From: a virus
Lineage: Duplodnaviria; Heunggongvirae; Uroviricota; Caudoviricetes
Virus record (IMG/VR): IMGVR_UViG_3300014043_000003
Location: 5,850-69,849 of that record
Reading direction: 5' to 3' (one strand)
Length of the DNA stretch: 64,000 nucleotides
Shown here: positions 482 to 59,326 of the stretch, one piece after another
Numbering within the stretch: position 1 is the stretch's first letter
Layout of the letters: every line of letters starts with the position of its first letter
Translations under genes and position numbers: made by a program
The notes under the pieces: generated by a model
Seen by the model: the letters and a program-made list of their open reading frames with translations, nothing else
The model's database searches: none
Told to the model about the DNA's origin: nothing

Positions 482-1372
482 TTACGCAGCCTCCTTTACG
501 TCATCCGCGGTGGCAAGGCTGCCTTTCAGAATGAGATCGACAGCCTTGTCCGCCTTTCCTGCCGCCTGCACAATCAGATCCGGATTACCCTTGATCGCAT
601 CGGTCCATCCCTTGAGATAGGCCGCAGAATTCTGGAAGCTGGACCGGCTCTCCACACCGCACTTCAAGCACAGAGCCGCGGCGCCCAGCTCGGCGATCAG
701 CTCCTCTTTGCTGTACTCCTCATTGCCGAAGCCAATCGCCCCGTTTTCCTTGAAACGCCCAAGGCGGGACCAATGGCCCGTCGAGTGAGTCATCTCATGG
801 AAGAGCGTCGAGTAAAACTCCTCCACCACCTTGAACTGCTCCACGCACGGCACCGTGATCAGATCCTCGCTCGGCCGGTAGAAGGCCCTGTTGCTCTCCT
901 GATCGCGGACGATCCGCAGCGTCGGATTCGCGGCGCAGTACCCCTCGATGATCTCCTCGGCCTCGGCCACGGTGTCATGCTCGAAGCGCAGATCATCATC
1001 CGCCAGATATTTCTTGTCGATGCCCTCGCAATCGTCCAAGTTGAAGACGTTGAAATATCTGAGCACCGGATATGTCTTGGCGACCTCCTCGCCGTCGTCG
1101 TTGGTCTCCACCTTGTTGATCACATTCCAGTAAACGATGAAGCGAGCCTTGGCGCCCTTCCTAACGTGGCCGCCCTCAGCCGCGATCTGCTTGAACGTCG
1201 CGTACTCGCCCGGCTTCCCCAGCAGCATGCAGTTGAGCAGACTGTAATGCTTGCCCGTTGTGTGACTCACAAAGCGATCGGACCCAAACCACGGCTGATG
1301 CCAGGGGATGACGCCCTTTTCCAGCTCTTCCAGAACACGCGCAGCGACCATTTCACAAACTTTTCCCGGCAT
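482..1372 (-). CDS. ardC: ArdC-like antirestriction protein (ssDNA-binding N-terminal domain plus zincin-like metalloprotease domain)
   Basis: The 315-aa ORF 482..1429 contains HEMTHSTGH (an HExxH zincin motif) and an N-terminal 'PWHQPW' region typical of ArdC/DUF1738. The likely true start is the internal Met (MPGKVCEM...) at 1372, which is preceded by a GGGAGGT ribosome-binding site. Confidence 0.65.
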   Translation of the reverse strand: MPGKVCEMVAARVLEELEKGVIPWHQPWFGSDRFVSHTTGKHYSLLNCMLLGKPGEYATFKQIAAEGGHVRKGAKARFIVYWNVINKVETNDDGEEVAKTYPVLRYFNVFNLDDCEGIDKKYLADDDLRFEHDTVAEAEEIIEGYCAANPTLRIVRDQESNRAFYRPSEDLITVPCVEQFKVVEEFYSTLFHEMTHSTGHWSRLGRFKENGAIGFGNEEYSKEELIAELGAAALCLKCGVESRSSFQNSAAYLKGWTDAIKGNPDLIVQAAGKADKAVDLILKGSLATADDVKEAA

Positions 1373-1690
1373 AATAGTACCTCCCATATTCCGTCCCGCA
1401 AGTGCCTTTCGCTTCTCTCTGAATGGCACGAGGCATTTTCAGCTCCAAGAAAAAAGCCCCCTGCCAGCGTCATAATAATAACACAGGCAAAGGGCTTTTT
1501 CAAGTGTAAATATACACAAATAATAGTGTTTGATTTTGGTGATTTTATCCGGGATTTCGGCGGTTTCGCTGATCGACGGTTTGGCCGCATCTTAAGACTA
1601 ACTTGCAACTAACTTGCTTCAGTTGCAACCATGTTGCAAGTTGGCCTTGTATAACTATCGTGCATATTTTGCGAAAAGGCGCACGATAGG

Positions 1691-2647
1691 TCAAGCGATC
1701 CTCTCGATTTTCCGGTAATTTTCGAGAGAACTGTACGCTTTTTCGATGAACCTCCCGAACTCCGGGTTCTCACGGAACAGCTTGTAGAGGCTCTCGCCGC
1801 TGTTGTCGGTGATTGCGTCCATCATCTTTTCTGAGTTAGAGAAAGCTCCATATTCAGCGAGGGCAAACATGATGTGAAGCCAAAACGGTTCATTTACGAA
1901 CTGCTTTTCTGTGCTGTATCCGCACAAAGCGCCCAGGATCTCTTCGTACTCCATCTCAACACCACACTGGGCGATAATGTTTATAATGGAGTGAAAGTCC
2001 TCGTTCATTTTTTGTGCCCTATATCGGATTGCACTTTTGGAGCCCTCGGGGTTTCCGTTTTTGGCCGCCATCAGGTAGGTCTTGCTGCCTTCTGCGACGC
2101 AGATACCGCCGGCCCTTCGAAGGTCCTTTCTTGTATCGTCGATGATCGCGTTTGCTTTCTTCGCGCTTCTTGGGTACAGAGACGAAACGCTCGTGTTAAA
2201 GCTCTCCATGTTGACCTGCCCAGTGACTTTCAGCTCCTCAATGAGCCGACTGCGCAGTTTGTTTACGATCTCATCCTTCTCCTCTTCAGCCAATTTGTCT
2301 CCAATTTCCCGCTTGTAGACTTGGTCGATCGTGAGTCCCTGGGAGCACATACGTATATAGTGGTTTCGCTCTTTCTCGCCCATCTCATAGAGCCATTTTG
2401 CAACGGCACGCTGTTCCTTCCTGCGAAGCTGCTCAATGCCGTCAAGCTCCGCCACTCTCACAAGGGCCTCTGCTTCGAGCTGTGCATATTGGACAGACAT
2501 CTCGTGGAAAGTCTCGTTTGCCTTGAGTGCTTCCCCGAGAGCGTTGATTTTGTTGACTTTCTTGATGAGGTCTCGCAGATCAACAGTCTGCCGTATACTG
2601 TCCAGATCGAACATTCTGTCCCTGATCGCAATCTCGTTATTTGCCAT
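1691..2647 (-). CDS. Hypothetical protein (318 aa) immediately adjacent to CRISPR array 1
   Basis: Long clean minus-strand ORF with no recognisable catalytic motif. It ends next to a 9-bp-stem hairpin at 1653-1689 and starts 27 bp from the degenerate terminal repeat of array 1. Confidence 0.5.
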   Translation of the reverse strand: MANNEIAIRDRMFDLDSIRQTVDLRDLIKKVNKINALGEALKANETFHEMSVQYAQLEAEALVRVAELDGIEQLRRKEQRAVAKWLYEMGEKERNHYIRMCSQGLTIDQVYKREIGDKLAEEEKDEIVNKLRSRLIEELKVTGQVNMESFNTSVSSLYPRSAKKANAIIDDTRKDLRRAGGICVAEGSKTYLMAAKNGNPEGSKSAIRYRAQKMNEDFHSIINIIAQCGVEMEYEEILGALCGYSTEKQFVNEPFWLHIMFALAEYGAFSNSEKMMDAITDNSGESLYKLFRENPEFGRFIEKAYSSLENYRKIERIA

Positions 2648-2673: not shown

Positions 2674-2903
2674 ACTCTGACTTTGCACGCTTGCGCGAGT
2701 CACATCCGGGAATTGGAGGACGACAAGCGCCAAATGATTCTCTGACTCTGCACGCTTGCGCGAGTCACATCTATGACGCTGGCGGGGGCCTTTTTTCTTG
2801 GGTTTCTCTGACTCTGCACGCTTGCGCGAGTCACATCTGGAAACGCCCCTGCAAAGATTGATGGAAGCCATCTCTGACTCTGCACGCTTGCGCGAGTCAC
2901 ATC
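2674..2903 (-). CRISPR. CRISPR array 1: four 33-bp repeats (consensus on the + strand TCTCTGACTCTGCACGCTTGCGCGAGTCACATC) and three spacers of 32-33 bp
   Basis: Repeats at 2674-2706 (degenerate, 2 mismatches), 2739-2771, 2805-2837 and 2871-2903, with unique spacers between them. The strand was inferred from the degenerate repeat at the low-coordinate (trailer) end and a conserved leader-like flank (GGCAAATTTGCACAA) at 2904+. The orientation is not certain. Confidence 0.8.
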
Positions 2904-3135
2904 GGCAAATTTGCACAATATCTATCGCGCCGCTTTATGCAATTCGCGCTTTATTCGCAGTTGCGCAAGCAATGCCTACTCTGTAGACCACGCCTTTTTC
3001 GTGGAACACTACCGGCTTCTTACGCCTATTTCGGTGCGAACGCATAGGCTTTTACTCATTGTTTACGGTTCGCACCTCGCCGGGGTCAGCCTCCGGCGAT
3101 TTATATTACTTTACTTCTTTCACATTGTCTCTTCT
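2904..3135. ncRNA. Conserved structured non-coding module flanking array 1 (candidate leader and/or tracrRNA-like scaffold), ending in a hairpin plus T-run
   Basis: It is homologous to 3437-3605 and 5296-5466: a shared AGCAAAnnGCACAA start, a shared 'caccg.tttct.acgcctatttcg' block and a stem that covaries between copies (ccacg/cgtgg here versus ctacg/cgtag in copy 2). It ends with TCGCCGG-loop-CCGGCGA followed by a T-rich tract at about 3102-3135 (on the + strand). Confidence 0.35.
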
Positions 3136-3139
3136 GTTC

Positions 3140-3436
3140 ATATCATTTGGCGCACTCGCGCCGGTTGCGTCGGGGAGAGATAAGGAAACACCCCACCGGG
3201 ACCTTCTCTGGCCCTGCGCACTCGCGCCGGTTGCGTCGGAAATCCCAGAAAAGGAGGCCGACGATGGCATCCTCTGGCCCTGCGCACTCGCGCCGGTTGC
3301 GTCGGCCCATCCAGCAGGTGCTGCTGGCCTTTAAGGACTCTGGCCCTGCGCACTCGCGCCGGTTGCGTCGGAGGAGATCCGGGAGGAGCTGAGCGCCACA
3401 GATCTCTGGCCCTGCGCACTCGCGCCGGTTGCGTCA
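3140..3436 (-). CRISPR. CRISPR array 2: five 33/34-bp repeats (consensus on the + strand CTCTGGCCCTGCGCACTCGCGCCGGTTGCGTCGG) and four spacers of 32-33 bp
   Basis: Repeats at about 3140-3172 (the first 10 nt are degenerate), 3206-3238, 3272-3304, 3338-3370 and 3404-3436 (the last ends ..GCGTCAGC). Spacers are all unique. The repeat is related to but distinct from the array-1 and array-3 repeats (shared CTCTG..CTGC..GCGC core). Confidence 0.85.
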
Positions 3437-3616: not shown

Positions 3617-5089
3617 TTACCCCGCTATAAGCGAGGGATAAAATGCTGCGTGGAGTATGTTAATGGCTGCGTTTACATCCTTGTCGTGAACAGTTTTGCA
3701 CTTTGGGCATCGCCAGTAGCGCGGAACGATGGATTTTCTTTCCATGATATGCCCGCAAGTGTGGCACGTTTTCACCGAAGGAAACCATTCATCGACGGCT
3801 ACGACCTCTCTCCCGTGCCATTTGGCCTTATATCTGATATTGTCCAAGATTGTACTGATTGCCGAGTCCGCGAGAACTCTCGCTGTGTGCTTGCTCTGAA
3901 ATTTTTTCACGACATCCAGCGTCTCTATGCCGATCCTTCCGTTTTCCTGAACAATTTTCCTGCTGATGATATGATTTTCGTTGGCTCGCCTGCGCGCGAT
4001 TTTTCTTTCCAGTTTTGCGAGCTTGAGTCTTGTCCTCTCATAGGTTTTCGACGGGCGGATGGTCTTATCTTGCACGTGTGCCGCACGGAACTGCTCATTT
4101 GCCCACCCCCAACGGCGCGAAAGTCTCCTGCTCACGCGCCTTTTATGCCTCTGCTCCTGCTCCTTAAACCGTTTGTTCTGGAACTTCTCGTTATCAGAAA
4201 GAGTAACCAGGTCCTTTGCTCCCATCTTTATGCCGACTTCCTTGCCCACTTTTTTGCTCATCGGCTTGTAGACCGCATTGTGCAGCTTGAAGCAAATGTA
4301 GTAGCTGTCGCAGTTATCCTTGCTGATCGTAATGGTTATCTGCTTGCTTTTGTTCTCTTGGAGCCATTCAGGAAACTGCATTTTTCCTTCTGGGTCAAAA
4401 CGGATCTCCTGATTCCAGCCTTTGATTTTGCAGGTGCTTTCTTTGCCTTCGTCACCACAGTCGCTCAGCCTTGCAAGGCGCGCATACATTGCATTGCGAT
4501 TACTTTTTGTGAAAAATTTCGAGCATGGTTCTTGGTATGTATAGCTCATTCGAGGCTTTTCCGAGTTGTAATAGCTTGGCGCTCGGAGGCCTTTCATCTC
4601 TTCTTTAAGTGCATCTATTACTTTTTGGTCTGCTCCCCTTGAGCGAAGATCTCTGATCCTCTTTCTGAGGTGCTTTTTAAGCTCGATCATCTGTTTAGTT
4701 CGTTCAACTGGCATTACTACGTGCTTTCCGTCTTTTTTTCTGGGGGCCGAGAGCGCCCTTGCAAGATCGTACTTAATGCACCCTGCATTTCCTGTGATTG
4801 CATAGGCAGGAACCTCTTTAACGATGGGGTTTTCCTCCGTTATTTTTGCCTTCCACTCTTTTGCCGTGAGATAGCCAAAATTTGGGTAGTGAGGGTATTC
4901 GCCATTTTCATTCGGCTTATCATCCTGCTTTGAAGCTGCTGGATCATTCAGGACGGCGTACAGGCTGCAGTTGTAGGCAATACGGACACCGATGAGTATT
5001 CTGTCGATTTGCTCTCTCTGCTTTTTGTTCGGATAGAGCCGACATTTCATCGTGTAGTCCTCAATAAAATCGTATGTCATCTTTTCCAT
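3617..5089 (-). CDS. TnpB/Cas12f-like RuvC-domain RNA-guided effector candidate (490 aa). Its RuvC-I aspartate is replaced by lysine, while the RuvC-II glutamate, RuvC-III aspartate and the zinc finger are retained
   Basis: The N-terminus MKCRLYPNKKQREQIDRILIGVRIAYN matches the TnpB/OrfB N-terminal motif. The central segment ..VGIKMGAKDLVTLSDNE aligns to the TnpB 'GIDLGLK.LA.LSDG' motif with K at the catalytic-D position (the codon ATA-AAG was checked on the DNA). The segment RRLSRRWGWANEQFRAAH...RIGIETLDVVKKF carries the RuvC-II glutamate. The C-terminus CHTCGH...RCPKCKTVHDKDVNAAINIL is the zinc finger plus the RuvC-III D-x-N-A-A-x-N-I motif. The gene is flanked by CRISPR arrays on both sides. 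Alternative starts at 5080 (MTYDF, AAGGAG ribosome-binding site 9 nt upstream) or 5050 (MKCRLYP). Confidence 0.8.
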   Translation of the reverse strand: MEKMTYDFIEDYTMKCRLYPNKKQREQIDRILIGVRIAYNCSLYAVLNDPAASKQDDKPNENGEYPHYPNFGYLTAKEWKAKITEENPIVKEVPAYAITGNAGCIKYDLARALSAPRKKDGKHVVMPVERTKQMIELKKHLRKRIRDLRSRGADQKVIDALKEEMKGLRAPSYYNSEKPRMSYTYQEPCSKFFTKSNRNAMYARLARLSDCGDEGKESTCKIKGWNQEIRFDPEGKMQFPEWLQENKSKQITITISKDNCDSYYICFKLHNAVYKPMSKKVGKEVGIKMGAKDLVTLSDNEKFQNKRFKEQEQRHKRRVSRRLSRRWGWANEQFRAAHVQDKTIRPSKTYERTRLKLAKLERKIARRRANENHIISRKIVQENGRIGIETLDVVKKFQSKHTARVLADSAISTILDNIRYKAKWHGREVVAVDEWFPSVKTCHTCGHIMERKSIVPRYWRCPKCKTVHDKDVNAAINILHAAFYPSLIAG

Positions 5090-5128: not shown

Positions 5129-5295
5129 CTCTCAGTTCCCGCACCTGCGCGGGTTGCGTCGCATACGTGGGTGCCTTTGCTCGGATGCTCAAAGGCTCTC
5201 AGTTCCCACACCTGCGCGGGTTGCATCGGAACTAAAAGAACTGGAGGAGGATCTGTAAAATGCTCTCAGTTCCCACACCTGCGCGGGTTGCATCA
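5129..5295 (-). CRISPR. CRISPR array 3: three 33-bp repeats (consensus on the + strand CTCTCAGTTCCCACACCTGCGCGGGTTGCATCG) and two 34-bp spacers
   Basis: Repeats at 5129-5161, 5196-5228 and 5263-5295 (the last ends ..GCATCAGCAAAA, the same terminus as array 2). The array sits about 40-50 bp upstream of the effector start codon, on the same strand if the minus orientation is correct. Confidence 0.75.
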
Positions 5296-5466
5296 GCAAA
5301 ACCGCACAAATCAGTGAGGAGCTTTTTGTGCAATCCGTGCATGGTGGAGATTGACCGAGCAATAGCTACTTTGTCTGCTGGCCTACGGCCATATTGACTA
5401 CCGCTTTCTCGATCTTTTCGGCTTACGCCGCGGCGTGGCTGAGTCTCACGCCGTTTTTATTCTTGA
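5296..5466. ncRNA. Conserved structured module flanking array 3 (candidate leader and/or tracrRNA-like RNA), ending in a hairpin plus T-run
   Basis: It starts AGCAAAACCGCACAAATC and shares the 'ctaccgctttctcgatcttttcgg' block with the other two copies. It ends with CGGCGTG-gctgagtct-CACGCCG followed by TTTTTATT at about 5436-5466. Confidence 0.3.
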
Positions 5467-5491
5467 CAAAACTATTTTTGCACACTATAAT
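5463..5491 (+). promoter_or_regulatory. Consensus sigma70 promoter TTGACA-N17-TATAAT driving the divergent HTH gene
   Basis: TTGACA at 5463-5468, a 17-nt spacer, then TATAAT at 5486-5491. An AGGAGGTG ribosome-binding site lies at about 5512-5519 and a TTG start at 5525. Confidence 0.7.
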
Positions 5492-5524
5492 TTGTGTATA
5501 TAGACCACCATAGGAGGTGATATT

Positions 5525-5773
5525 TTGGCGATTATATGGAAAGTTGACCCTGTCGAGCTTCTGAAATCAGCGGGCTACAGCTCGTACCGCATCCGGCAGG
5601 AGAAGATTTTTGGTCAACAAACGTACCGCAACCTTCGTGAGCGGCGGCCAGTCGGTTTTGATGCTCTGAATACAATCTGCAAACTCACAAAAAAGAAACC
5701 CGGTCAACTCCTTGATTACGTCCCTGACAGTAAGCTCCCTCCAAAGGAGCAGGAGACTATCCCTGCTCCTTGA
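5525..5773 (+). CDS. Small HTH (Cro/CI-type) DNA-binding protein, paralogue of 6600..6833
   Basis: 82 aa from a TTG start with a strong ribosome-binding site. The ...YRNLRERRPVGFDALNTICKLTKKKPGQLLDYV segment resembles the ENIDTICSILNCQPGTLIRF HTH of its paralogue. It is transcribed divergently from the CRISPR locus. Confidence 0.55.
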   Translation: MAIIWKVDPVELLKSAGYSSYRIRQEKIFGQQTYRNLRERRPVGFDALNTICKLTKKKPGQLLDYVPDSKLPPKEQETIPAP

Positions 5774-5951
5774 TGCGGTCGAGCGCGAGGTAAATCAACG
5801 CGAGCGATTTGTCCGGATCTCCGTTCTCGGCGAGGAGGGCTGCGCCCTCCAGAAGAGCTTCGAGCTCAGCGACGAGCTCGCTCTGATCGTTCTGATCGTC
5901 ATGGATGACAGTCGTGCTATGCACCGTTACGGTGCTGTGCGTTGGCTTCAT
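5757..5951 (-). CDS. Hypothetical small protein (64 aa), paralogue of 24185..24382
   Basis: AGGAGG ribosome-binding site upstream. The C-terminus ALLLAENGDPDKSLALIYLALDRIKEQG resembles ALLFFENGKEDDSIACMYMAGDRIKEYW of the 24185 copy. Confidence 0.55.
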   Translation of the reverse strand: MKPTHSTVTVHSTTVIHDDQNDQSELVAELEALLEGAALLAENGDPDKSLALIYLALDRIKEQG

Positions 5952-5963
5952 GGCTTTTCCTCC

Positions 5964-6260
5964 TTATGCTGCGTCCGGCTTAATCGTGTTCAGCGTGAAG
6001 CGCGTGCCGGTCGTTGCCTTCGTGAAGGCCTTGTACAGATCACCGTGCTCCTTCTTGAAAGCGGCGCTGTCGAAGCGATTGCTCACGGTGTTGTGCCAGG
6101 TGGCACGCCAGCCGGCGCCCTCCAGCTCCTCAGTGCCCTGCTCGACCATCTCAGCCTTGACCGCGTCCTTGATGGCCTCGGCCTCGGCCTCCAGCTCGGA
6201 AATCATCTGCATAATCTCAAAGTAGTTGCGCACCTTGTCGTTAAGCTCGATGTTTTTCAT
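5964..6260 (-). CDS. Coiled-coil phage protein (98 aa), near-identical paralogue of 23754..24050 in inverted orientation
   Basis: MKNIELNDKVRNYFEIMQMISELEAEAEAIKDAVKAEMVEQGTEELEGAGWRATWHN... is about 80-85% identical at the protein level and about 90% identical in the central DNA segment to the 23754 copy. Confidence 0.6.
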   Translation of the reverse strand: MKNIELNDKVRNYFEIMQMISELEAEAEAIKDAVKAEMVEQGTEELEGAGWRATWHNTVSNRFDSAAFKKEHGDLYKAFTKATTGTRFTLNTIKPDAA

Positions 6261-23753: not shown

Positions 23754-24050
23754 ATGGCAAACATCGAACTGAATGAGAGAGTCCGTAATTACTTCGAGAT
23801 TCTCCAGACGATCTCCGAGCTGGAGGCTGAGGCCGAGGCCATCAAGGACGCGGTCAAAGCTGAGATGGTCGAGCAGGGCACCGAAGAGCTGGAGGGTGCT
23901 GGCTGGCGTGCTACCTGGCACAACACTACGACCAACCGCTTCGACAGCTCCGCTTTCAAGAAAGAGCACGCTGAGCTGTACGCGGCGTTCACGAAGAAGA
24001 CGAACAGCACGCGCTTCACGCTGAACTCGATCAAGCCCGAGGCTGCATAA
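23754..24050 (+). CDS. Coiled-coil phage protein (98 aa), paralogue of 5964..6260
   Basis: MANIELNERVRNYFEILQTISELEAEAEAIKDAVKAEMVEQGTEELEGAGWRATWHN.. GGAGG ribosome-binding site upstream. Confidence 0.6.
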   Translation: MANIELNERVRNYFEILQTISELEAEAEAIKDAVKAEMVEQGTEELEGAGWRATWHNTTTNRFDSSAFKKEHAELYAAFTKKTNSTRFTLNSIKPEAA

Positions 24051-24184
24051 AGAGAAAGGCTGTATATCCAATTCGCCCTTGGATATACAGCCGGGACCAT
24101 CTCAGACACATACAAATTCGTGGGAAGGTCTAAAAATGATTTTACCAGACCTTCCCCCATTTTACAAGGAGGAATTTTCAAGAA

Positions 24185-54736: not shown

Positions 54737-55042
54737 TTACTCAGCATAGAGAATCTCGCTCATTTCCAGGATGCATTCCGTGAGGACTTCGTTTTCCTCA
54801 CGGAGTTCGCGAAGCGTACGCTCAAGGTCGCTCTCCTCAACAAAAGTGAACCAGTAGCGTCCGTCGATGCTGGCGCAGCGCTGTACGCTTGCATTCACGT
54901 ATACGATACTGCCGTTGTCGGTCTCCACCGTCACCTGACTGAGATCGGCGGGGAAGGTCGGCTCCACAGGGACAATCAGACTGTCGCCGTTCTGCTCCGC
55001 CGTGAGGGTTGTGCCGTTTTTGAAGATGATTCTGGCTTCCAT
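54737..55042 (-). CDS. Hypothetical protein downstream of the reverse transcriptase
   Basis: Start taken at MEARIIFKNG. It overlaps the reverse-transcriptase 3' end by about 66 bp. Confidence 0.35.
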   Translation of the reverse strand: MEARIIFKNGTTLTAEQNGDSLIVPVEPTFPADLSQVTVETDNGSIVYVNASVQRCASIDGRYWFTFVEESDLERTLRELREENEVLTECILEMSEILYAE

Positions 55043-56202
55043 TTCAATTCCTTTCCGAAGAGCTCCATATACAGACTCTTCATGTGCTTGATTTGGTCTT
55101 TTGACATGATCCTTGAAAAATCGCCCATCCATGATCGAGCCGCCTGCTCAATCTCCGGATAGGCGATCTTTCCGTTGTCCATGAGACGCTTATACGCTTT
55201 CAGTTTCCTTCTTTCGCGGGTTACTGATTGTGGATTGATCCTCCGGACAACCTGCCCTGTTTCGGTAAGACTGTACTTGATCTGTAGAAACTTGTAAGTG
55301 CCGGAGAGCTTGACGATCCTTGTCTTGCTTTCATTGATAAACAGGCCAAGAGAATCCGCTTCGGCTTTCACCCCATTGATGATGGACTTCAATTCCTCAA
55401 GGTCTTTGCAGATGATATACATGTCATCCATATACCTGCCGTAATACTTGCATCTGCGGACAATCTTCACGTAATTATCAATGGGTGTCGGAAAGAAAAC
55501 GCCGATGTCCTGCGACACCTGATCCCCTATGTCTACAGACTTCGGCATGAATTTTTCTCCCGTCCGATTCGCCTTTGGGACGTTCTTGTAGTATTCAACA
55601 GAGTTGAATTTCCGATTCATGCAGGAGGCAAATTCATTGTCGCTCATATACGATACATCGACCTCGAACGTACGGAGTATCTTGTCCATAAACCATTGGG
55701 CTTCGCTGCTGATCTTCGGATACACCTGCTCTTTGATCTTGTCATGCTGGATGTTGTCATAGAACTTTGAAAAGTCAACGAAACCAACATATCCATCATT
55801 CGTGCGGTGTTTTAACCAGAAGTTATGCAAATCCTTCTCGAACATCATTCTTGTGAAGCTGATGCCCTTTCCCTTCTGACTGGCACCGTTGTTATGAATC
55901 AGATACGGATGCAGCGCCGATGTAAGCTCGCCGTCACATAACGCATGGCGAACGACCCTGTCACGGACCTTTACGCCATGGATGTGCCTGATCTTCCCTC
56001 TCTCATTCAGAGTAAACTCGACGCCCGGAAGGGTTTCGTAGGTGCGAGATTCCATCTCATGTTTCAGCTTGACAATCTCCGACAGAAAATCCCTTTCAAA
56101 AAGCTGAGGCTCTTCTTTCCATGCGCTCCCCTTCATGGATGCAAGAAATGAATCGTAGAGCAAATTCAGATCACACAGTCTATTCTCGCTCATATTTCGC
56201 AT
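54976..56202 (-). CDS. Diversity-generating retroelement reverse transcriptase
   Basis: RT motifs ..YGRYMDDMYII.. (YxDD) and ..VDIGDQVSQDIGVFF.. (the DGR-specific I/VGxxxSQ). Strong GGAGGT ribosome-binding site. It lies directly 3' (in the minus direction) of the template repeat. Confidence 0.85.
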   Translation of the reverse strand: MRNMSENRLCDLNLLYDSFLASMKGSAWKEEPQLFERDFLSEIVKLKHEMESRTYETLPGVEFTLNERGKIRHIHGVKVRDRVVRHALCDGELTSALHPYLIHNNGASQKGKGISFTRMMFEKDLHNFWLKHRTNDGYVGFVDFSKFYDNIQHDKIKEQVYPKISSEAQWFMDKILRTFEVDVSYMSDNEFASCMNRKFNSVEYYKNVPKANRTGEKFMPKSVDIGDQVSQDIGVFFPTPIDNYVKIVRRCKYYGRYMDDMYIICKDLEELKSIINGVKAEADSLGLFINESKTRIVKLSGTYKFLQIKYSLTETGQVVRRINPQSVTRERRKLKAYKRLMDNGKIAYPEIEQAARSWMGDFSRIMSKDQIKHMKSLYMELFGKELKWKPESSSKTAQPSRRSRTATV

Positions 56203-56382
56203 ACCTCCCTCCGCGGGTTAAGCCCCGGATATTAGTTCGTCGTAACTCACTACATGAAGCAAACCGGGTATGCGCGGCTCCGCATTGCTGCGCTGTCTTT
56301 TAGCCTCCTTATCGGAGGACATGGATAATCTTTCCTTTCGGTAAAACGCCGGCCTATCTTATAGAGGACTTACTATGCGTTT

Positions 56383-56505
56383 CCAAAATCCGGACGGACG
56401 CCGATCCTTGAGTTCGAAGCGTTGTTGTAGTTGCAGTTGCCGTTGTTGTTCACATTGGCGAAGTTCGACGCGGAGACGACATCACGCAGCCACCAGTTGG
56501 CGCGT
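56383..56505 (-). repeat. DGR template repeat (TR)
   Basis: About 123 bp homologous to the 3' ends of both target genes, with a constant offset (894 bp to VR1, 1955 bp to VR2) and no indels. Nearly every TR/VR mismatch lies at a + strand T (an A on the sense strand) of the TR. The spurious ORF 56373..56651 is its translation. Confidence 0.85.
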
Positions 56506-56529
56506 TCAAAGATTACCCAAATATTAGAA

Positions 56530-57204
56530 TCATTGCTTTGTGACTTCCGCTTCCTTGCTGACCAGCAAACTTTTCTCAACCTTGGCGATTTTGCGGATAA
56601 TGTCTGCAATATTCTCGAAGATTGTGATAATGTGCTGATCCATGGAGTCAAGGATTTTTCCGGTCTTTCTGTCCTTTCGCGGCTTTATGAGCTTATTATC
56701 CGCAGAACGGACGCCCTTGTAGAGGGCGATCTGCTTATCTATCAGCTCCGCAAACCTCTCGTACTTGTTGATGTCGACCGGAAGCGTCCTGATGACGTAG
56801 TTGATCTCCTGCTTCAGAGAATAGCAAAGGCCAATCGCCTTGTTCATGTGCCATCTGCGCACAAGGAACTCCATGAGTCTCGCCGGTGTCTCAGATGGAA
56901 AAATAGAATTGCCGGACGTAAATTCTTCTTCGATCCTTCTGAGCAAATCCAGTAGGGCGCGGGCTTCCTCGTCGATAAACCATTTGTCAAATGCGTCCAG
57001 CTTTTGCTGTTTCAACGCTATAGTCTCAAGCGACTTCGGATTGTTCACGTTTGCCGCCTTGAGCTGGTCAATCTTCATCTGATATTTCTCTTTGCAGAAG
57101 CCGAAATCATTCAGAATGAGGCCGGTCACTTCATTCCGCAAGTAATAGAAATGATGGGACGCCTCGAAGCGTGATTCCTTCCTTCGGCCTTTCGGTACAC
57201 TCAT
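56530..57204 (-). CDS. DGR accessory protein candidate (in the Avd position; 224 aa, not obviously an Avd fold)
   Basis: It occupies the canonical position between the target genes and the TR. No recognisable Avd-like four-helix-bundle sequence, so the call rests on synteny only. Confidence 0.4.
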   Translation of the reverse strand: MSVPKGRRKESRFEASHHFYYLRNEVTGLILNDFGFCKEKYQMKIDQLKAANVNNPKSLETIALKQQKLDAFDKWFIDEEARALLDLLRRIEEEFTSGNSIFPSETPARLMEFLVRRWHMNKAIGLCYSLKQEINYVIRTLPVDINKYERFAELIDKQIALYKGVRSADNKLIKPRKDRKTGKILDSMDQHIITIFENIADIIRKIAKVEKSLLVSKEAEVTKQ

Positions 57205-57263
57205 GTGTGATTCTCCTTATCTCCTTGAATCCCGCCCACAAGGGGCGGAGATTCAAGATACGC

Positions 57264-58238
57264 TTACGCTTTGATACCGAAAGCCGGACGGACGCCGATC
57301 CATGAACCCGAAGCGCTGTTGTAGTCGCAGGCGCCGTGGTTGTTCACATAGGCGAAGTCCGACGCGGAGACGACATCACGCAGCCACCAGACGGCGCGGT
57401 TGCAGATGTACTGCGGCGCCAGCTTGAACAGAGGCAGTTGTCCCTTGTCTATCGTGTAGGCATTGGGAATGTTCGTGCCATGCACAACGTTGGAGAACAC
57501 ACGGCATCCATAGACCATCTGTTCATTCATCAGGTCAACTGCGCTGTCATACCAGGCGCCTGCGTTCTGATACCCGCCGGTCGTGGAGTTCGCAAAATAC
57601 TCGCGGTGAGTAAGGATGTGAGAACTTCCAAAGGCTTCTTCGATCATACCGACGGCCGTTGCCTTGCCGACATTGTCGTTGTTGCCGGTGTAGAAGTCGG
57701 ACCCGATGTACGCGCCTGTCGTGATATTCGTCTTGTTCATCGGCGCGTTGGAGCCGAGGTTCGTATCCGGGACGATAACCGCGTGGTGGGTAGTGCATTC
57801 GGTGTCGCCGCATCTGAGCCAGTAGTCAAAGGCGGCAATACGCCAGTTCTTGCCGCCGATCACCCAGTAGTCGCCGATAAAAAGATCCTCAAACGTACCG
57901 GCGCTGATCGCCGCATACTGATCGGCGGTAACGGATGTGCCAAGGTTCTTTCCACGGAACAGGCTGTTGTGAAATCCGGCGTTATTATAGTTTCCGGCGA
58001 CATTGCGAATCCTTGCTATGTCTGCAACATGCTCATTGATCGCACCGGTCAGGTTCTGGGCCGTGGTCAGGAGCGCAGCAGTACCAACGCGGGCCGCAAT
58101 TGCCTTGTTCTCGACAGGGTTCGTCGAGGTCGTGGAGAGTGCGCTGTCGATTGTGTCGATCACGCCGGTTGCCAGGTCGGTGTATGTGCCGTCCTGATTC
58201 CGTTTCTTGACCGCGCTGGGATAAAGGGTTACAGGCAT
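57264..58238 (-). CDS. DGR target protein 1: tail-fibre/receptor-binding protein with a C-terminal C-type-lectin-like variable region
   Basis: The C-terminus ..NRAVWWLRDVVSASDFAYVNNHGACDYNSASGSWIGVRPAFGIKA is encoded by VR1. It is a paralogue of 58325..59326. Confidence 0.8.
   Translation of the reverse strand: MPVTLYPSAVKKRNQDGTYTDLATGVIDTIDSALSTTSTNPVENKAIAARVGTAALLTTAQNLTGAINEHVADIARIRNVAGNYNNAGFHNSLFRGKNLGTSVTADQYAAISAGTFEDLFIGDYWVIGGKNWRIAAFDYWLRCGDTECTTHHAVIVPDTNLGSNAPMNKTNITTGAYIGSDFYTGNNDNVGKATAVGMIEEAFGSSHILTHREYFANSTTGGYQNAGAWYDSAVDLMNEQMVYGCRVFSNVVHGTNIPNAYTIDKGQLPLFKLAPQYICNRAVWWLRDVVSASDFAYVNNHGACDYNSASGSWIGVRPAFGIKA
57277..57399 (-). repeat. DGR variable repeat 1 (VR1)
   Basis: Aligned to the TR with substitutions only where the TR sense strand has A. 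An identical 18-bp GC-rich segment (CCGGACGGACGCCGATCC on the + strand) lies at the sense 3' end (IMH candidate). A conserved hairpin CCCGCCC-ACAA-GGGGCGG lies at 57231-57248, just 3' of the gene. Confidence 0.8.
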
Positions 58239-58324
58239 AAATTATCCCTCCTATTCTAATTCTATTTATGCCCCATGAAGTAGTCTGAATCCCCGCCCAC
58301 AAGGGGCGGTGATTTAAGATTCGC

Positions 58325-59326
58325 TTACGCTTTGATTCCGAAAGCCGGACGGACGCCGATCCCGGAGTACGAAGCGTAGTTGAAGTAGCAGCGGCCGTAG
58401 TTGTCCACAAGGGCGAAGCGCGACGCGGAGACGACATCACGCAGCCACCAGACGGCGCGGTTGCAGATGAACGAAGGCGCGAGCGCAAACAGCGGGAGCT
58501 GCCCTTTGTCGATGGTATAGGCATTCGGAATGTTCGTTCCGTGCATTGCATTGGAATAGACGCGACAGCCGTACACCATCTGCTCGTTCATCATATCCAC
58601 CGTGGAGTCGTACCACGCTCCAGCGCTTTGATAGCCGTTGGTCACAGCATTGGCGAAGTATTCTCTATGGCTGAGAATATGCGCAGCGCCGAAGGCACCC
58701 TCGGCCATTGCGATGCAGTCAGCCTTGGCAGTGTTCTCAGTTTCATTGGCATTGACGCCGGTGTAGAAGCCGCTGCCGACATACGCGCCGGTCGTGATGT
58801 TCGAGGTGTTCATGTAATGAGTGGTACTGCCATCGGCAACTTTCAGGTTGGAGTCTGGAACGATCACGGCATGATGCTTTGTGCATTCGGTATCTCCGCA
58901 TCTATACCAGTAATCAAAGGCCGCAATGCGCCAGTTAATGGAGTTGATCGTCCAATAGTCTCCAATGAACAGGTCTTCAAAGGTTCCGGCGTTGATTGCC
59001 GCCCACTGTTCCGCCGTAATGGTGGAGCCGAGGCTTTTCCCCCTGAAAATGCTATTATGGAAGCCTGCGGTGTCACTGTTGCCGAAGATCGCCATGAGCT
59101 CCTCAATGTCCGCTTCCTGCTCATTGATCGCTTCAGCAAGGGTTTGAGCTGTGGTATCCAGGGCCGCCGTGCCGAGCCTGTTTGTGATAACAAGGTTCTG
59201 AACGGGACTCGAACTGATTGTAGAGAACACATCGTCAACTTCGGTTACGACGGCAGGGGTAACGTCGGTGTACGTTCCGTTGTCGTTGCGTTTCTTTACA
59301 ACGCCGGGATAAAGAGTCAAAGGCAT
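58325..59326 (-). CDS. DGR target protein 2: paralogous tail-fibre/receptor-binding protein with a C-terminal variable region
   Basis: The C-terminus ..NRAVWWLRDVVSASRFALVDNYGRCYFNYASYSGIGVRPAFGIKA is encoded by VR2. Confidence 0.8.
   Translation of the reverse strand: MPLTLYPGVVKKRNDNGTYTDVTPAVVTEVDDVFSTISSSPVQNLVITNRLGTAALDTTAQTLAEAINEQEADIEELMAIFGNSDTAGFHNSIFRGKSLGSTITAEQWAAINAGTFEDLFIGDYWTINSINWRIAAFDYWYRCGDTECTKHHAVIVPDSNLKVADGSTTHYMNTSNITTGAYVGSGFYTGVNANETENTAKADCIAMAEGAFGAAHILSHREYFANAVTNGYQSAGAWYDSTVDMMNEQMVYGCRVYSNAMHGTNIPNAYTIDKGQLPLFALAPSFICNRAVWWLRDVVSASRFALVDNYGRCYFNYASYSGIGVRPAFGIKA
58338..58460 (-). repeat. DGR variable repeat 2 (VR2)
   Basis: Same relationship to the TR as VR1, with a conserved downstream hairpin CCCCGCCC-ACAA-GGGGCGG at 58291-58309. 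Confidence 0.8.

Follow-up and report, generated by a model that had tools for sequence, protein, structure and literature searches.

A phage-encoded TranC-type effector with lysine at the RuvC-I catalytic position and three guide modules: a plausible but unproven nuclease-dead DNA binder

TranC proteins are RNA-guided effectors viewed as intermediates between TnpB and Cas12, which are associated with CRISPR arrays holding 3-20 copies of 32-38 bp repeats and have no adaptation genes of their own. In TranC clade 11 the arrays comprise 3-17 copies of 32-36 bp repeats, and the protospacer-adjacent motif (PAM) reported for LaTranC/TranC11a is TTC (bioRxiv 10.1101/2025.09.28.678669). The TranCs characterised so far are nucleases, and a phage-borne member (CauTranC9) has already been reported. 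Among their type V relatives, Cas12m, Cas12k and the array-associated dCas12f bind DNA under the guidance of CRISPR RNAs (crRNAs) without cutting it; Cas12m is found on plasmids and some prophages and blocks transcription, and one cluster of dCas12f is known to occur close to CRISPR arrays and to have guides that match promoters. The effector considered here is encoded in a 64,000-nucleotide stretch (hereafter the window) of a Caudoviricetes virus, corresponding to positions 5,850 to 69,849 of the IMG/VR record IMGVR_UViG_3300014043_000003. Among solved structures it resembles LaTranC most closely; it carries a Lys where its relatives have the RuvC-I catalytic Asp, and is flanked by three guide modules, each composed of a scaffold and a mini-array.

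The effector contains KKVGKEVGIKMGAKDLVTLSDNE, and its minus-strand codons GGC ATA AAG ATG GGA (4234..4220) encode GIKMG. The motif and its codons, first noticed in a reading of the window from its sequence alone (the sequence-only reading), were reproduced directly from the DNA; the interval given there, 4270-4282, was wrong, as it encodes HNAV, 12-16 codons upstream and about 45 nucleotides off. Pairwise alignments and alignment columns agree in placing the Lys (K288) on the RuvC-I catalytic Asp. With phmmer, the segment vgkevGIKMGakDLvtLSD of the effector is paired with ipepiGLDVGiKDiaiLnt of LaTranC (9jfo/9jfq), and GIKMG with the GVDVG of aGVDVGIKDFAIVTD in ISDra2 TnpB (8h1j), where D193 of the chain is the native D191, as established by counting and by the chain offset of +2 relative to the 408-residue protein. 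In MAFFT alignments the K288 column is Asp in all relatives included (36/36, 119/119 and, for full-length relatives, 100/100). Instead of a complete Asp-Glu-Asp (DED) triad, the effector thus has K288-E389-D471. The Lys codon appears to be neither an error nor a chance event, since AAG is two nucleotide changes away from either Asp codon (GAY) and the same protein occurs in two separate ENA assemblies, which are 99.99-100% identical over 13-15 kb.

The remainder of the active site is kept. E389 and D471 were confirmed in the alignments as the RuvC-II Glu and the RuvC-III Asp, whose retention had been proposed from the sequence; D471 corresponds to D361 of ISDra2 TnpB (again with the +2 chain offset), in a column that is Asp in every aligned relative reaching that position. 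An AlphaFold2 model built on the family alignment has a predicted local distance difference test (pLDDT) score of 92.4 and a predicted template-modelling score of 0.84. In this model K288 ends strand E284-289, E389 ends strand E385-389 and D471 starts helix H470-483, a predicted placing that matches the usual RuvC arrangement. When the RuvC segments were compared with those of the relatives, no compensating acidic residue specific to the effector was found near the active site: the only acidic gains of its own are E301 and E434, while D293 and D392 cannot be regarded as compensatory because relatives with an intact Asp have both. Mutation of any residue of the DED motif abolishes the nuclease activity of TnpB and Cas12 proteins (bioRxiv 10.1101/2023.11.30.569447). 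With a Lys on the catalytic Asp and no effector-specific acidic residue to make up for it near the site, it is very likely that DNA cleavage by the RuvC domain has been lost, in line with the earlier proposal of an attenuated or dead nuclease.

Outside the active site the protein gives little sign of decay. Its open reading frame (ORF) is unbroken, 60 of the 68 columns conserved at 90% or more are kept, including those of all four zinc-finger cysteines, and every conserved basic residue is retained except for the conservative change R470K. Near the catalytic residues 5/20 conserved columns are changed (D288K, V289M, M396K, A409S and R470K) versus 3/48 elsewhere, so that 45 of the 48 conserved positions outside the active site are kept (Fisher p = 0.04, with the "near" set defined post hoc). 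Five such changes is the highest number among the unbroken family members, the next one having three. This clustering would be expected if catalysis had been lost some time ago while other functions were still under selection, a scenario to which it lends weak support.

Homology to LaTranC argues for assigning the effector to the TranC group. LaTranC is its best solved match by sequence (9jfo, E 1e-60, phmmer against PDB sequences), the alignment extending over most of the protein in three stretches, and also its best fold match (9jfq, TM 0.76/0.78, E 1.3e-33, Foldseek), followed by TnpB (TM about 0.6/0.75) and then by Cas12f; the two proteins share a compact TnpB-like architecture. The effector passes the NCBIfam model NF040570 guided_TnpB (184.6 bits vs a cutoff of 100) and matches the Pfam families OrfB_IS605 (40.3/30.5) and Cas12f1-like_TNB (76.5/26.3). 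In contrast, it falls short of the Cas12f model NF038192 V_cas_c2c8 (76.7 bits vs a cutoff of 350), matches the Cas12f/Cas12u models of PADLOC only partially, and finds Cas12f proteins in the PDB with E values of 1e-6 or weaker (phmmer), so that it is nearer to TranC (LaTranC) than to Cas12f, which the sequence-only reading had named beside TnpB. The likeness to Cas12m and Cas12k is distant, both in fold (TM 0.37-0.45, Foldseek ranks 25-43) and in sequence, with UnCas12m4a matching the C-terminal RuvC segment only (E 3e-6, phmmer). The effector also differs from LaTranC, to which it is only about 26-28% identical, by an insertion of about 40 residues that is missing from 36/36 aligned relatives and from LaTranC and is predicted with confidence (pLDDT 91-97), and it ends without the long C-terminal extension found in the LaTranC-like subgroup (P0099-P0106). 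Some 100 full-length proteins make up the family, sharing 31-46% BLASTP identity with the effector, and several of them are encoded on IMG/VR viral contigs (L018-L027); the contig of the nearest relative (L003) carries phage-type genes such as YopX. The ORF list gives the effector 490 amino acids, the numbering used here, but a second ATG at 5080 is preceded 9 nucleotides upstream by AAGGAG and the database copy (P0001) has 487 residues, and therefore the true start is probably at 5080, in which case K288 would become K285.

The three scaffold-plus-array modules lie on the effector's own strand, flanking its gene; there are three arrays and not two, array C, upstream of the effector, being the third. 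All repeats are 32 nucleotides long and the spacers about 34. The three repeat types differ between arrays (A and B at 10/32 positions, without indels) and the repeats within each array are near-identical. In the scaffold alignment, compensatory double changes were found in 13/46 pairs (RNAalifold; scaffolds A and B and that of the nearest relative), which supports the view that the scaffolds are structured RNAs under selection; none of them matched an Rfam family. When 185,579 GTDB species genomes and IMG/VR were searched with a pattern that merges repeats A and B, no array with such repeats turned up. Similar layouts are seen around relatives whose Asp is intact: the nearest relative (L003) has one array upstream of the effector, with a repeat similar to that of array C, and one downstream; L022 has one upstream and two downstream; and L018 has one upstream. 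Because relatives with an intact Asp share it, the multi-array layout is a trait of the family and not a consequence of the Lys. The arrays of these relatives (L022 3830-3992, 5613-5913 and 6157-6323; L003 5552-5921 and 7505-7953) likewise combine differing repeat variants with a single effector, so that the co-existence of several repeat and scaffold types with one effector is not restricted to the Lys-bearing protein. In the window, the last repeat of array C ends 39 nucleotides ahead of the first ATG (5089) of the effector, and array B ends 27 nucleotides ahead of the start (2647) of the next gene. No second TnpB-like effector gene was found in the 64 kb, and no adaptation genes were seen among the called genes within about 10 kb on either side of the effector, where no dedicated search was made.

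The window belongs to a phage, as it encodes tail-fibre proteins, an endolysin, an ArdC-like anti-restriction protein, a DNA methyltransferase and a reverse transcriptase, with RecT, SSB, a replisome organiser and RusA upstream; its source is a metagenome project on sheep rumen (PRJNA214227). Nine spacers were extracted from arrays A, B and C and searched, together with three trailing sequences, against the window. Spacer B2 resembles a site (1441..1474) preceded by 5'-TTC (1438..1440), from which it departs at spacer positions 2, 3, 4, 17 and 22; the similarity ends exactly at the spacer borders, and a match of this quality is expected by chance at about 1e-7 by our own estimate. The other eight spacers have best self-matches with at least 12 mismatches in the window, which is chance level. 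The TTC flank agrees with the PAM of TranC11a, as a single instance (n=1) on an imperfect match. The B2 site abuts the -10 of a sigma-70-like promoter, directly downstream of it, and lies about 70-100 nucleotides upstream of the ArdC-like gene. By analogy with Cas12, the TTC-proximal end of B2 is presumed to be the seed and, because three of the five mismatches fall there, the phage's own site is probably not recognised by the B2 guide. The simplest reading is that B2 is directed against a related phage, at the early promoter region homologous to this one, where a site at the promoter is the place at which a repressor acting by occupancy would be effective. Spacers of the relatives (L003, L018, L021-L023 and L026) showed no cross-targeting of the window or of the related loci. 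The coordinates of all these features are collected in Table 1.

Table 1. Features of the effector locus, in window coordinates
Feature	Position	Strand	Basis or remark
Effector gene, TranC-like (TnpB/Cas12-family)	3617..5089	-	ORF list, 490 amino acids
K288 codon AAG, RuvC-I catalytic Asp position	4226..4228	-	motif GIKMG 4220..4234
E389, RuvC-II catalytic Glu (RIGIETLD), codon GAG, kept	3923..3925	-	
D471, RuvC-III catalytic Asp (second D of HDKD), codon GAT, kept	3677..3679	-	
Zinc finger CxxC...CxxC (C442, C445, C461, C464), kept	3698..3766	-	
Lineage-specific insertion of about 40 amino acids, predicted helical hairpin (H128-150, H155-166)	4592..4708	-	alignment, AlphaFold2
Scaffold C, leader resembling a trans-activating CRISPR RNA (tracrRNA) or right-end element RNA (reRNA)	5295..5475	-	aligns with scaffolds A, B and that of L003
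Mini-array C: 3 repeats (GATGCAACCCGCGCAGGTGTGGGAACTGAGAG), 2 spacers, directly upstream of effector start	5129..5294	-	
Scaffold A, tracr/reRNA-like leader, directly after effector stop codon	3436..3616	-	
Mini-array A: 5 repeats (GACGCAACCGGCGCGAGTGCGCAGGGCCAGAG; last one degenerate at 3' end), 4 spacers of 34 nucleotides	3140..3435	-	
Scaffold B, third paralogous leader	2904..3139	-	aligns with scaffolds A, C and that of L003
Mini-array B: 4 repeats (GATGTGACTCGCGCAAGCGTGCAGAGTCAGAG), 3 spacers	2675..2903	-	
Spacer B2	2772..2805	-	array B
B2 protospacer-like site with 5'-TTC	1438..1474	+	29/34 identical
Sigma-70-like promoter TTGAAA-17-TATTAT with TG, upstream of ArdC-like gene	1475..1503	-	10/12 match
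ArdC-like anti-restriction gene	1372..482	-	

Compared with described systems, the locus shares with TranC its small adjoining arrays (32-nucleotide repeats in 3, 5 and 4 copies). The tracr/reRNA-like scaffold beside each of them may correspond to the TranC guide, which is split into a reRNA-derived, tracrRNA-like scaffold and a crRNA, and the TTC at the one protospacer-like site may correspond to the PAM of TranC11a. It departs from the characterised TranC nucleases by the Lys, and from LaTranC by having three scaffold-plus-array modules around one gene. Like TldR proteins, the effector is related to TnpB, is carried by a phage (as in the prophage fliC-associated TldR) and has a damaged RuvC site in a fold whose RNA-binding parts are kept; promoter occupancy, the mode of action proposed for TldR, is for the effector a proposal only. 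Unlike TldR, which forms clades with conserved inactivation that have usually lost two or more DED residues and are often C-terminally truncated, the change is found here in one genome, with one residue lost and the zinc finger and RuvC-III intact. The screen used by the TldR authors required fewer than two conserved DED residues, and the effector, which keeps E389 and D471, fails it. TldR also works with a single adjacent guide RNA having a guide of 9-16 nucleotides and a defined host promoter as target, whereas the phage has arrays with spacers of about 34 nucleotides, among which one imperfect promoter-proximal match was found in place of a promoter-matching single guide. Cas12m, Cas12k and dCas12f belong to other lineages and reached inactivation by another route, and Cas12k in addition has Tn7-like transposition proteins as partners, none of which were seen here. 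By analogy, the effector would work like TldR, Cas12m or dCas12f, yet it is a member of none of these groups. Finally, the short arrays recall the viral CRISPR mini-arrays proposed for inter-virus competition (PMC11656645), including the fact that one spacer resembles, though imperfectly, a site in the phage's own genome, as would be seen if it were really aimed at a close relative; the phage differs from those viruses in bringing its own effector, and no actual target phage was identified. No report of a natural nuclease-dead TranC was found in the literature searched.

In the explanation favoured here, the phage encodes a TranC-type RNA-guided effector, from the family intermediate between TnpB and Cas12, together with three paralogous guide modules. 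D288K breaks the metal-binding Asp-Glu-Asp triad, leaving a protein that is most likely unable to cut DNA, whereas the parts involved in guide loading and DNA recognition appear intact, so that complexes with guide RNAs would still form. We infer that these complexes retain binding to TTC-flanked targets and act by occupancy; as in CRISPR interference, related phages that superinfect the cell would then have their transcription or replication blocked. The probability of this full explanation, including an adapted role as binder or repressor, is estimated at about 0.4; such a role is the single most likely explanation, although it does not reach even odds. The narrower idea that the dead TranC and its three mini-arrays form a programmable superinfection-immunity repressor, acting without cutting on early promoters of related incoming phages, such as that of the ArdC-like operon, is somewhat less likely. 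The comparison with Cas12k, Cas12m and TldR made in the sequence-only reading, which saw a naturally cleavage-deficient binder, holds in part: fold, zinc finger and guide modules are intact and the protein is phage-borne with arrays, but the inactivation is confined to one of 120 family members and defines no clade. The silencing of host or competitor genes that it envisaged was not established, as no perfect target was found for any of the nine spacers and B2 provides a near-match only.

Several observations weigh against an adapted binder. The Lys is a singleton, shared by 0/119 relatives, and the check on whether the substitution is conserved in homologues therefore came out negative; the nearest relative, found by a word-indexed protein search of 5.8 billion clusters and about 46-52% identical (46% by BLASTP), has the RuvC-I Asp. 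A search of IMG/VR with the effector protein returned no close relatives, and a DNA pattern around the codon, with NNN at the codon itself, had no match in JGI metagenomes or IMG/VR. Because the change is a singleton without close relatives, conservation of the dead state, by which exaptation is usually judged, cannot be shown. The lineage of the effector has a branch about 1.6 times as long as that of its sister, a faster rate that is compatible with relaxed constraint as much as with adaptation, and the test for clustering of changes at the active site was defined post hoc and gave a marginal result. In the TldR work the authors warn that losses of a single DED residue are often spurious, and required two (bioRxiv 10.1101/2023.11.30.569447). 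As to targets, the spacers of arrays A and B had no match in 50,697 GenBank phage records (BLAST), exact, partly degenerate searches of IMG/VR, JGI metagenomes and GTDB genomes for a target of B2 yielded none, and none of the nine spacers matched the 97 related loci that were fetched. The sole near-match, with its three TTC-proximal mismatches, is probably unbound in the phage itself, and one promoter-proximal site among nine spacers makes weak statistics.

Much of this would also be explained by a recent loss of function, that is, by a freshly disabled nuclease that is neutral or slightly deleterious and is decaying without a new role, with arrays that would be leftovers or be used by an effector from the host or a co-resident element. 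The uniqueness of the substitution, the longer branch and the lack of perfect spacer targets all favour this view, as do the broken or split genes found elsewhere in the family (P0104/P0105, split after RuvC-II, and the C-terminally truncated P0081), which indicate that inactivation does occur. It fits less well with an intact ORF, a confident fold, the well-kept conserved positions outside the active site, repeats that are essentially identical within each of the three arrays, scaffolds with compensatory pairing and a window without a second effector. Moreover, since the codon is two substitutions away from Asp and four more changes lie beside catalytic residues, all of this with no stop or frameshift, the loss would not be brand new. 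A recent loss thus has to be taken as a possible explanation, if a somewhat doubtful one, and an adapted nuclease-dead binder as plausible but unproven, the finding being otherwise a one-off inactivation.

The other explanations have far less in their favour. A dominant-negative decoy, in which the dead effector and its scaffolds would, like an anti-CRISPR, sequester the guide RNAs of a host TranC or occupy its targets, has a precedent in a phage Cas9 whose RuvC domain is inactivated and for which sequestration of host crRNAs has been proposed (PMC11656645), and three repeat and scaffold variants around one phage-borne protein could mimic several host systems. It is nonetheless improbable, considering that relatives with an intact Asp share the multi-array layout and that the repeat A/B pattern led to no host system in the GTDB and IMG/VR searches mentioned above. 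That the effector is still an active nuclease, with another acidic residue rescuing catalysis or with the Lys being tolerated, is quite improbable as well. Alternate catalytic positions in TnpB and Fanzor have caused false calls of inactivity (bioRxiv 10.1101/2023.11.30.569447), and D293, E301, D392 and E434 provide acidic side chains in the RuvC segments. However, D293 and D392 are common to relatives that keep the Asp, with ISDra2 TnpB also having an Asp at the D293 equivalent (GVDVGIKD), E301 and E434 would, from the topology of the model, be placed at the distal ends of their strands, and metals cannot be coordinated by a two-metal site that holds a cationic Lys. To our knowledge, it is for the RuvC-II Glu and not for the RuvC-I Asp that an alternate position is documented, and the D191A mutant of ISDra2 TnpB is reportedly inactive. 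Most improbable of all is a sequencing or assembly artefact masking a true Asp codon: all copies may come from the one sheep-rumen project and are perhaps not independent, but it would take two nucleotide differences, two separate assemblies have the same codon as the window, and V289M next to it, together with the other changes close to the active site, fits a real and older event.

Should the effector be a functional binder, it would possibly be the first dead TranC known from nature and the counterpart, by CRISPR interference, of a phage repressor, showing a phage that uses RNA-guided repression instead of cleavage against its competitors. It would represent a TranC effector caught just after the loss of its nuclease, with full-length arrays, zinc finger and RuvC-III still there, and thus an early stage of the path that led to TldR, Cas12m, Cas12k and dCas12f, as well as a natural experiment on the changes that arise around a disabled RuvC site. 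In practical terms, it would provide a compact (about 490 amino acids), naturally dead DNA binder with a TTC PAM. If the gene is merely one that was recently broken, its value would be limited to documenting how frequently such inactivation takes place in phages.

Two further members of the family, P0105 (L098 5001-6519) and P0104 (L099 5001-6522), are 79% identical to each other and have the effector split in both cases. An ORF of 413-419 amino acids ends after RuvC-II, and an overlapping ORF of 106-107 amino acids in another frame encodes the zinc finger and RuvC-III. The split, conserved in both phages, may reflect programmed frameshifting, a gene in two parts or a pseudogene common to the two; that they form a C-terminally truncated dead subclade was considered and ruled out, given that zinc finger and RuvC-III are present in the overlapping second ORF.

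Directly after array B there is a gene for a 318-residue protein (1691-2647, minus strand) without a Pfam, PHROG or PADLOC match, which is syntenic with a 315-residue protein (38% identical) that directly follows an array in the nearest relative's contig (L003, 7982-8929). Between this gene and the ArdC-like gene, TTGCAAC/GTTGCAA repeats (1590-1650) form a hairpin-like element, flagged as terminator-like at 1628..1603 (minus strand). A 19-nucleotide motif, CACTAT(A/T)ATTTGTGTATAT, occurs exactly twice in the 64 kb (0 expected). One copy (1510-1528, minus strand) is upstream of the ArdC-like gene, and the other (5483-5501, plus strand) overlaps the -10 of a perfect TTGACA-17-TATAAT promoter (5463-5491, plus strand) for a Cro/C1-type helix-turn-helix gene (5525..5773); from its sequence and placing, the motif looks like a shared operator.

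Further away, a diversity-generating retroelement (54976-58475) comprises a reverse transcriptase gene (54976..56202, minus strand), a template repeat (56369-56513) and variable repeats (57263-57407 and 58324-58468) at the 3' ends of the ORFs 57264..58238 and 58325..59326, the mismatches of the variable repeats being mostly at template adenines (17/25 and 20/27). This element was considered as the source of the Lys codon and ruled out, the effector gene having no similarity to the template repeat. The window also contains an inverted duplication of about 300 bp with 85% identity (5956-6255 and 23759-24057), which covers an ORF of 98 amino acids (5964..6260) with weak similarity to DUF7376.

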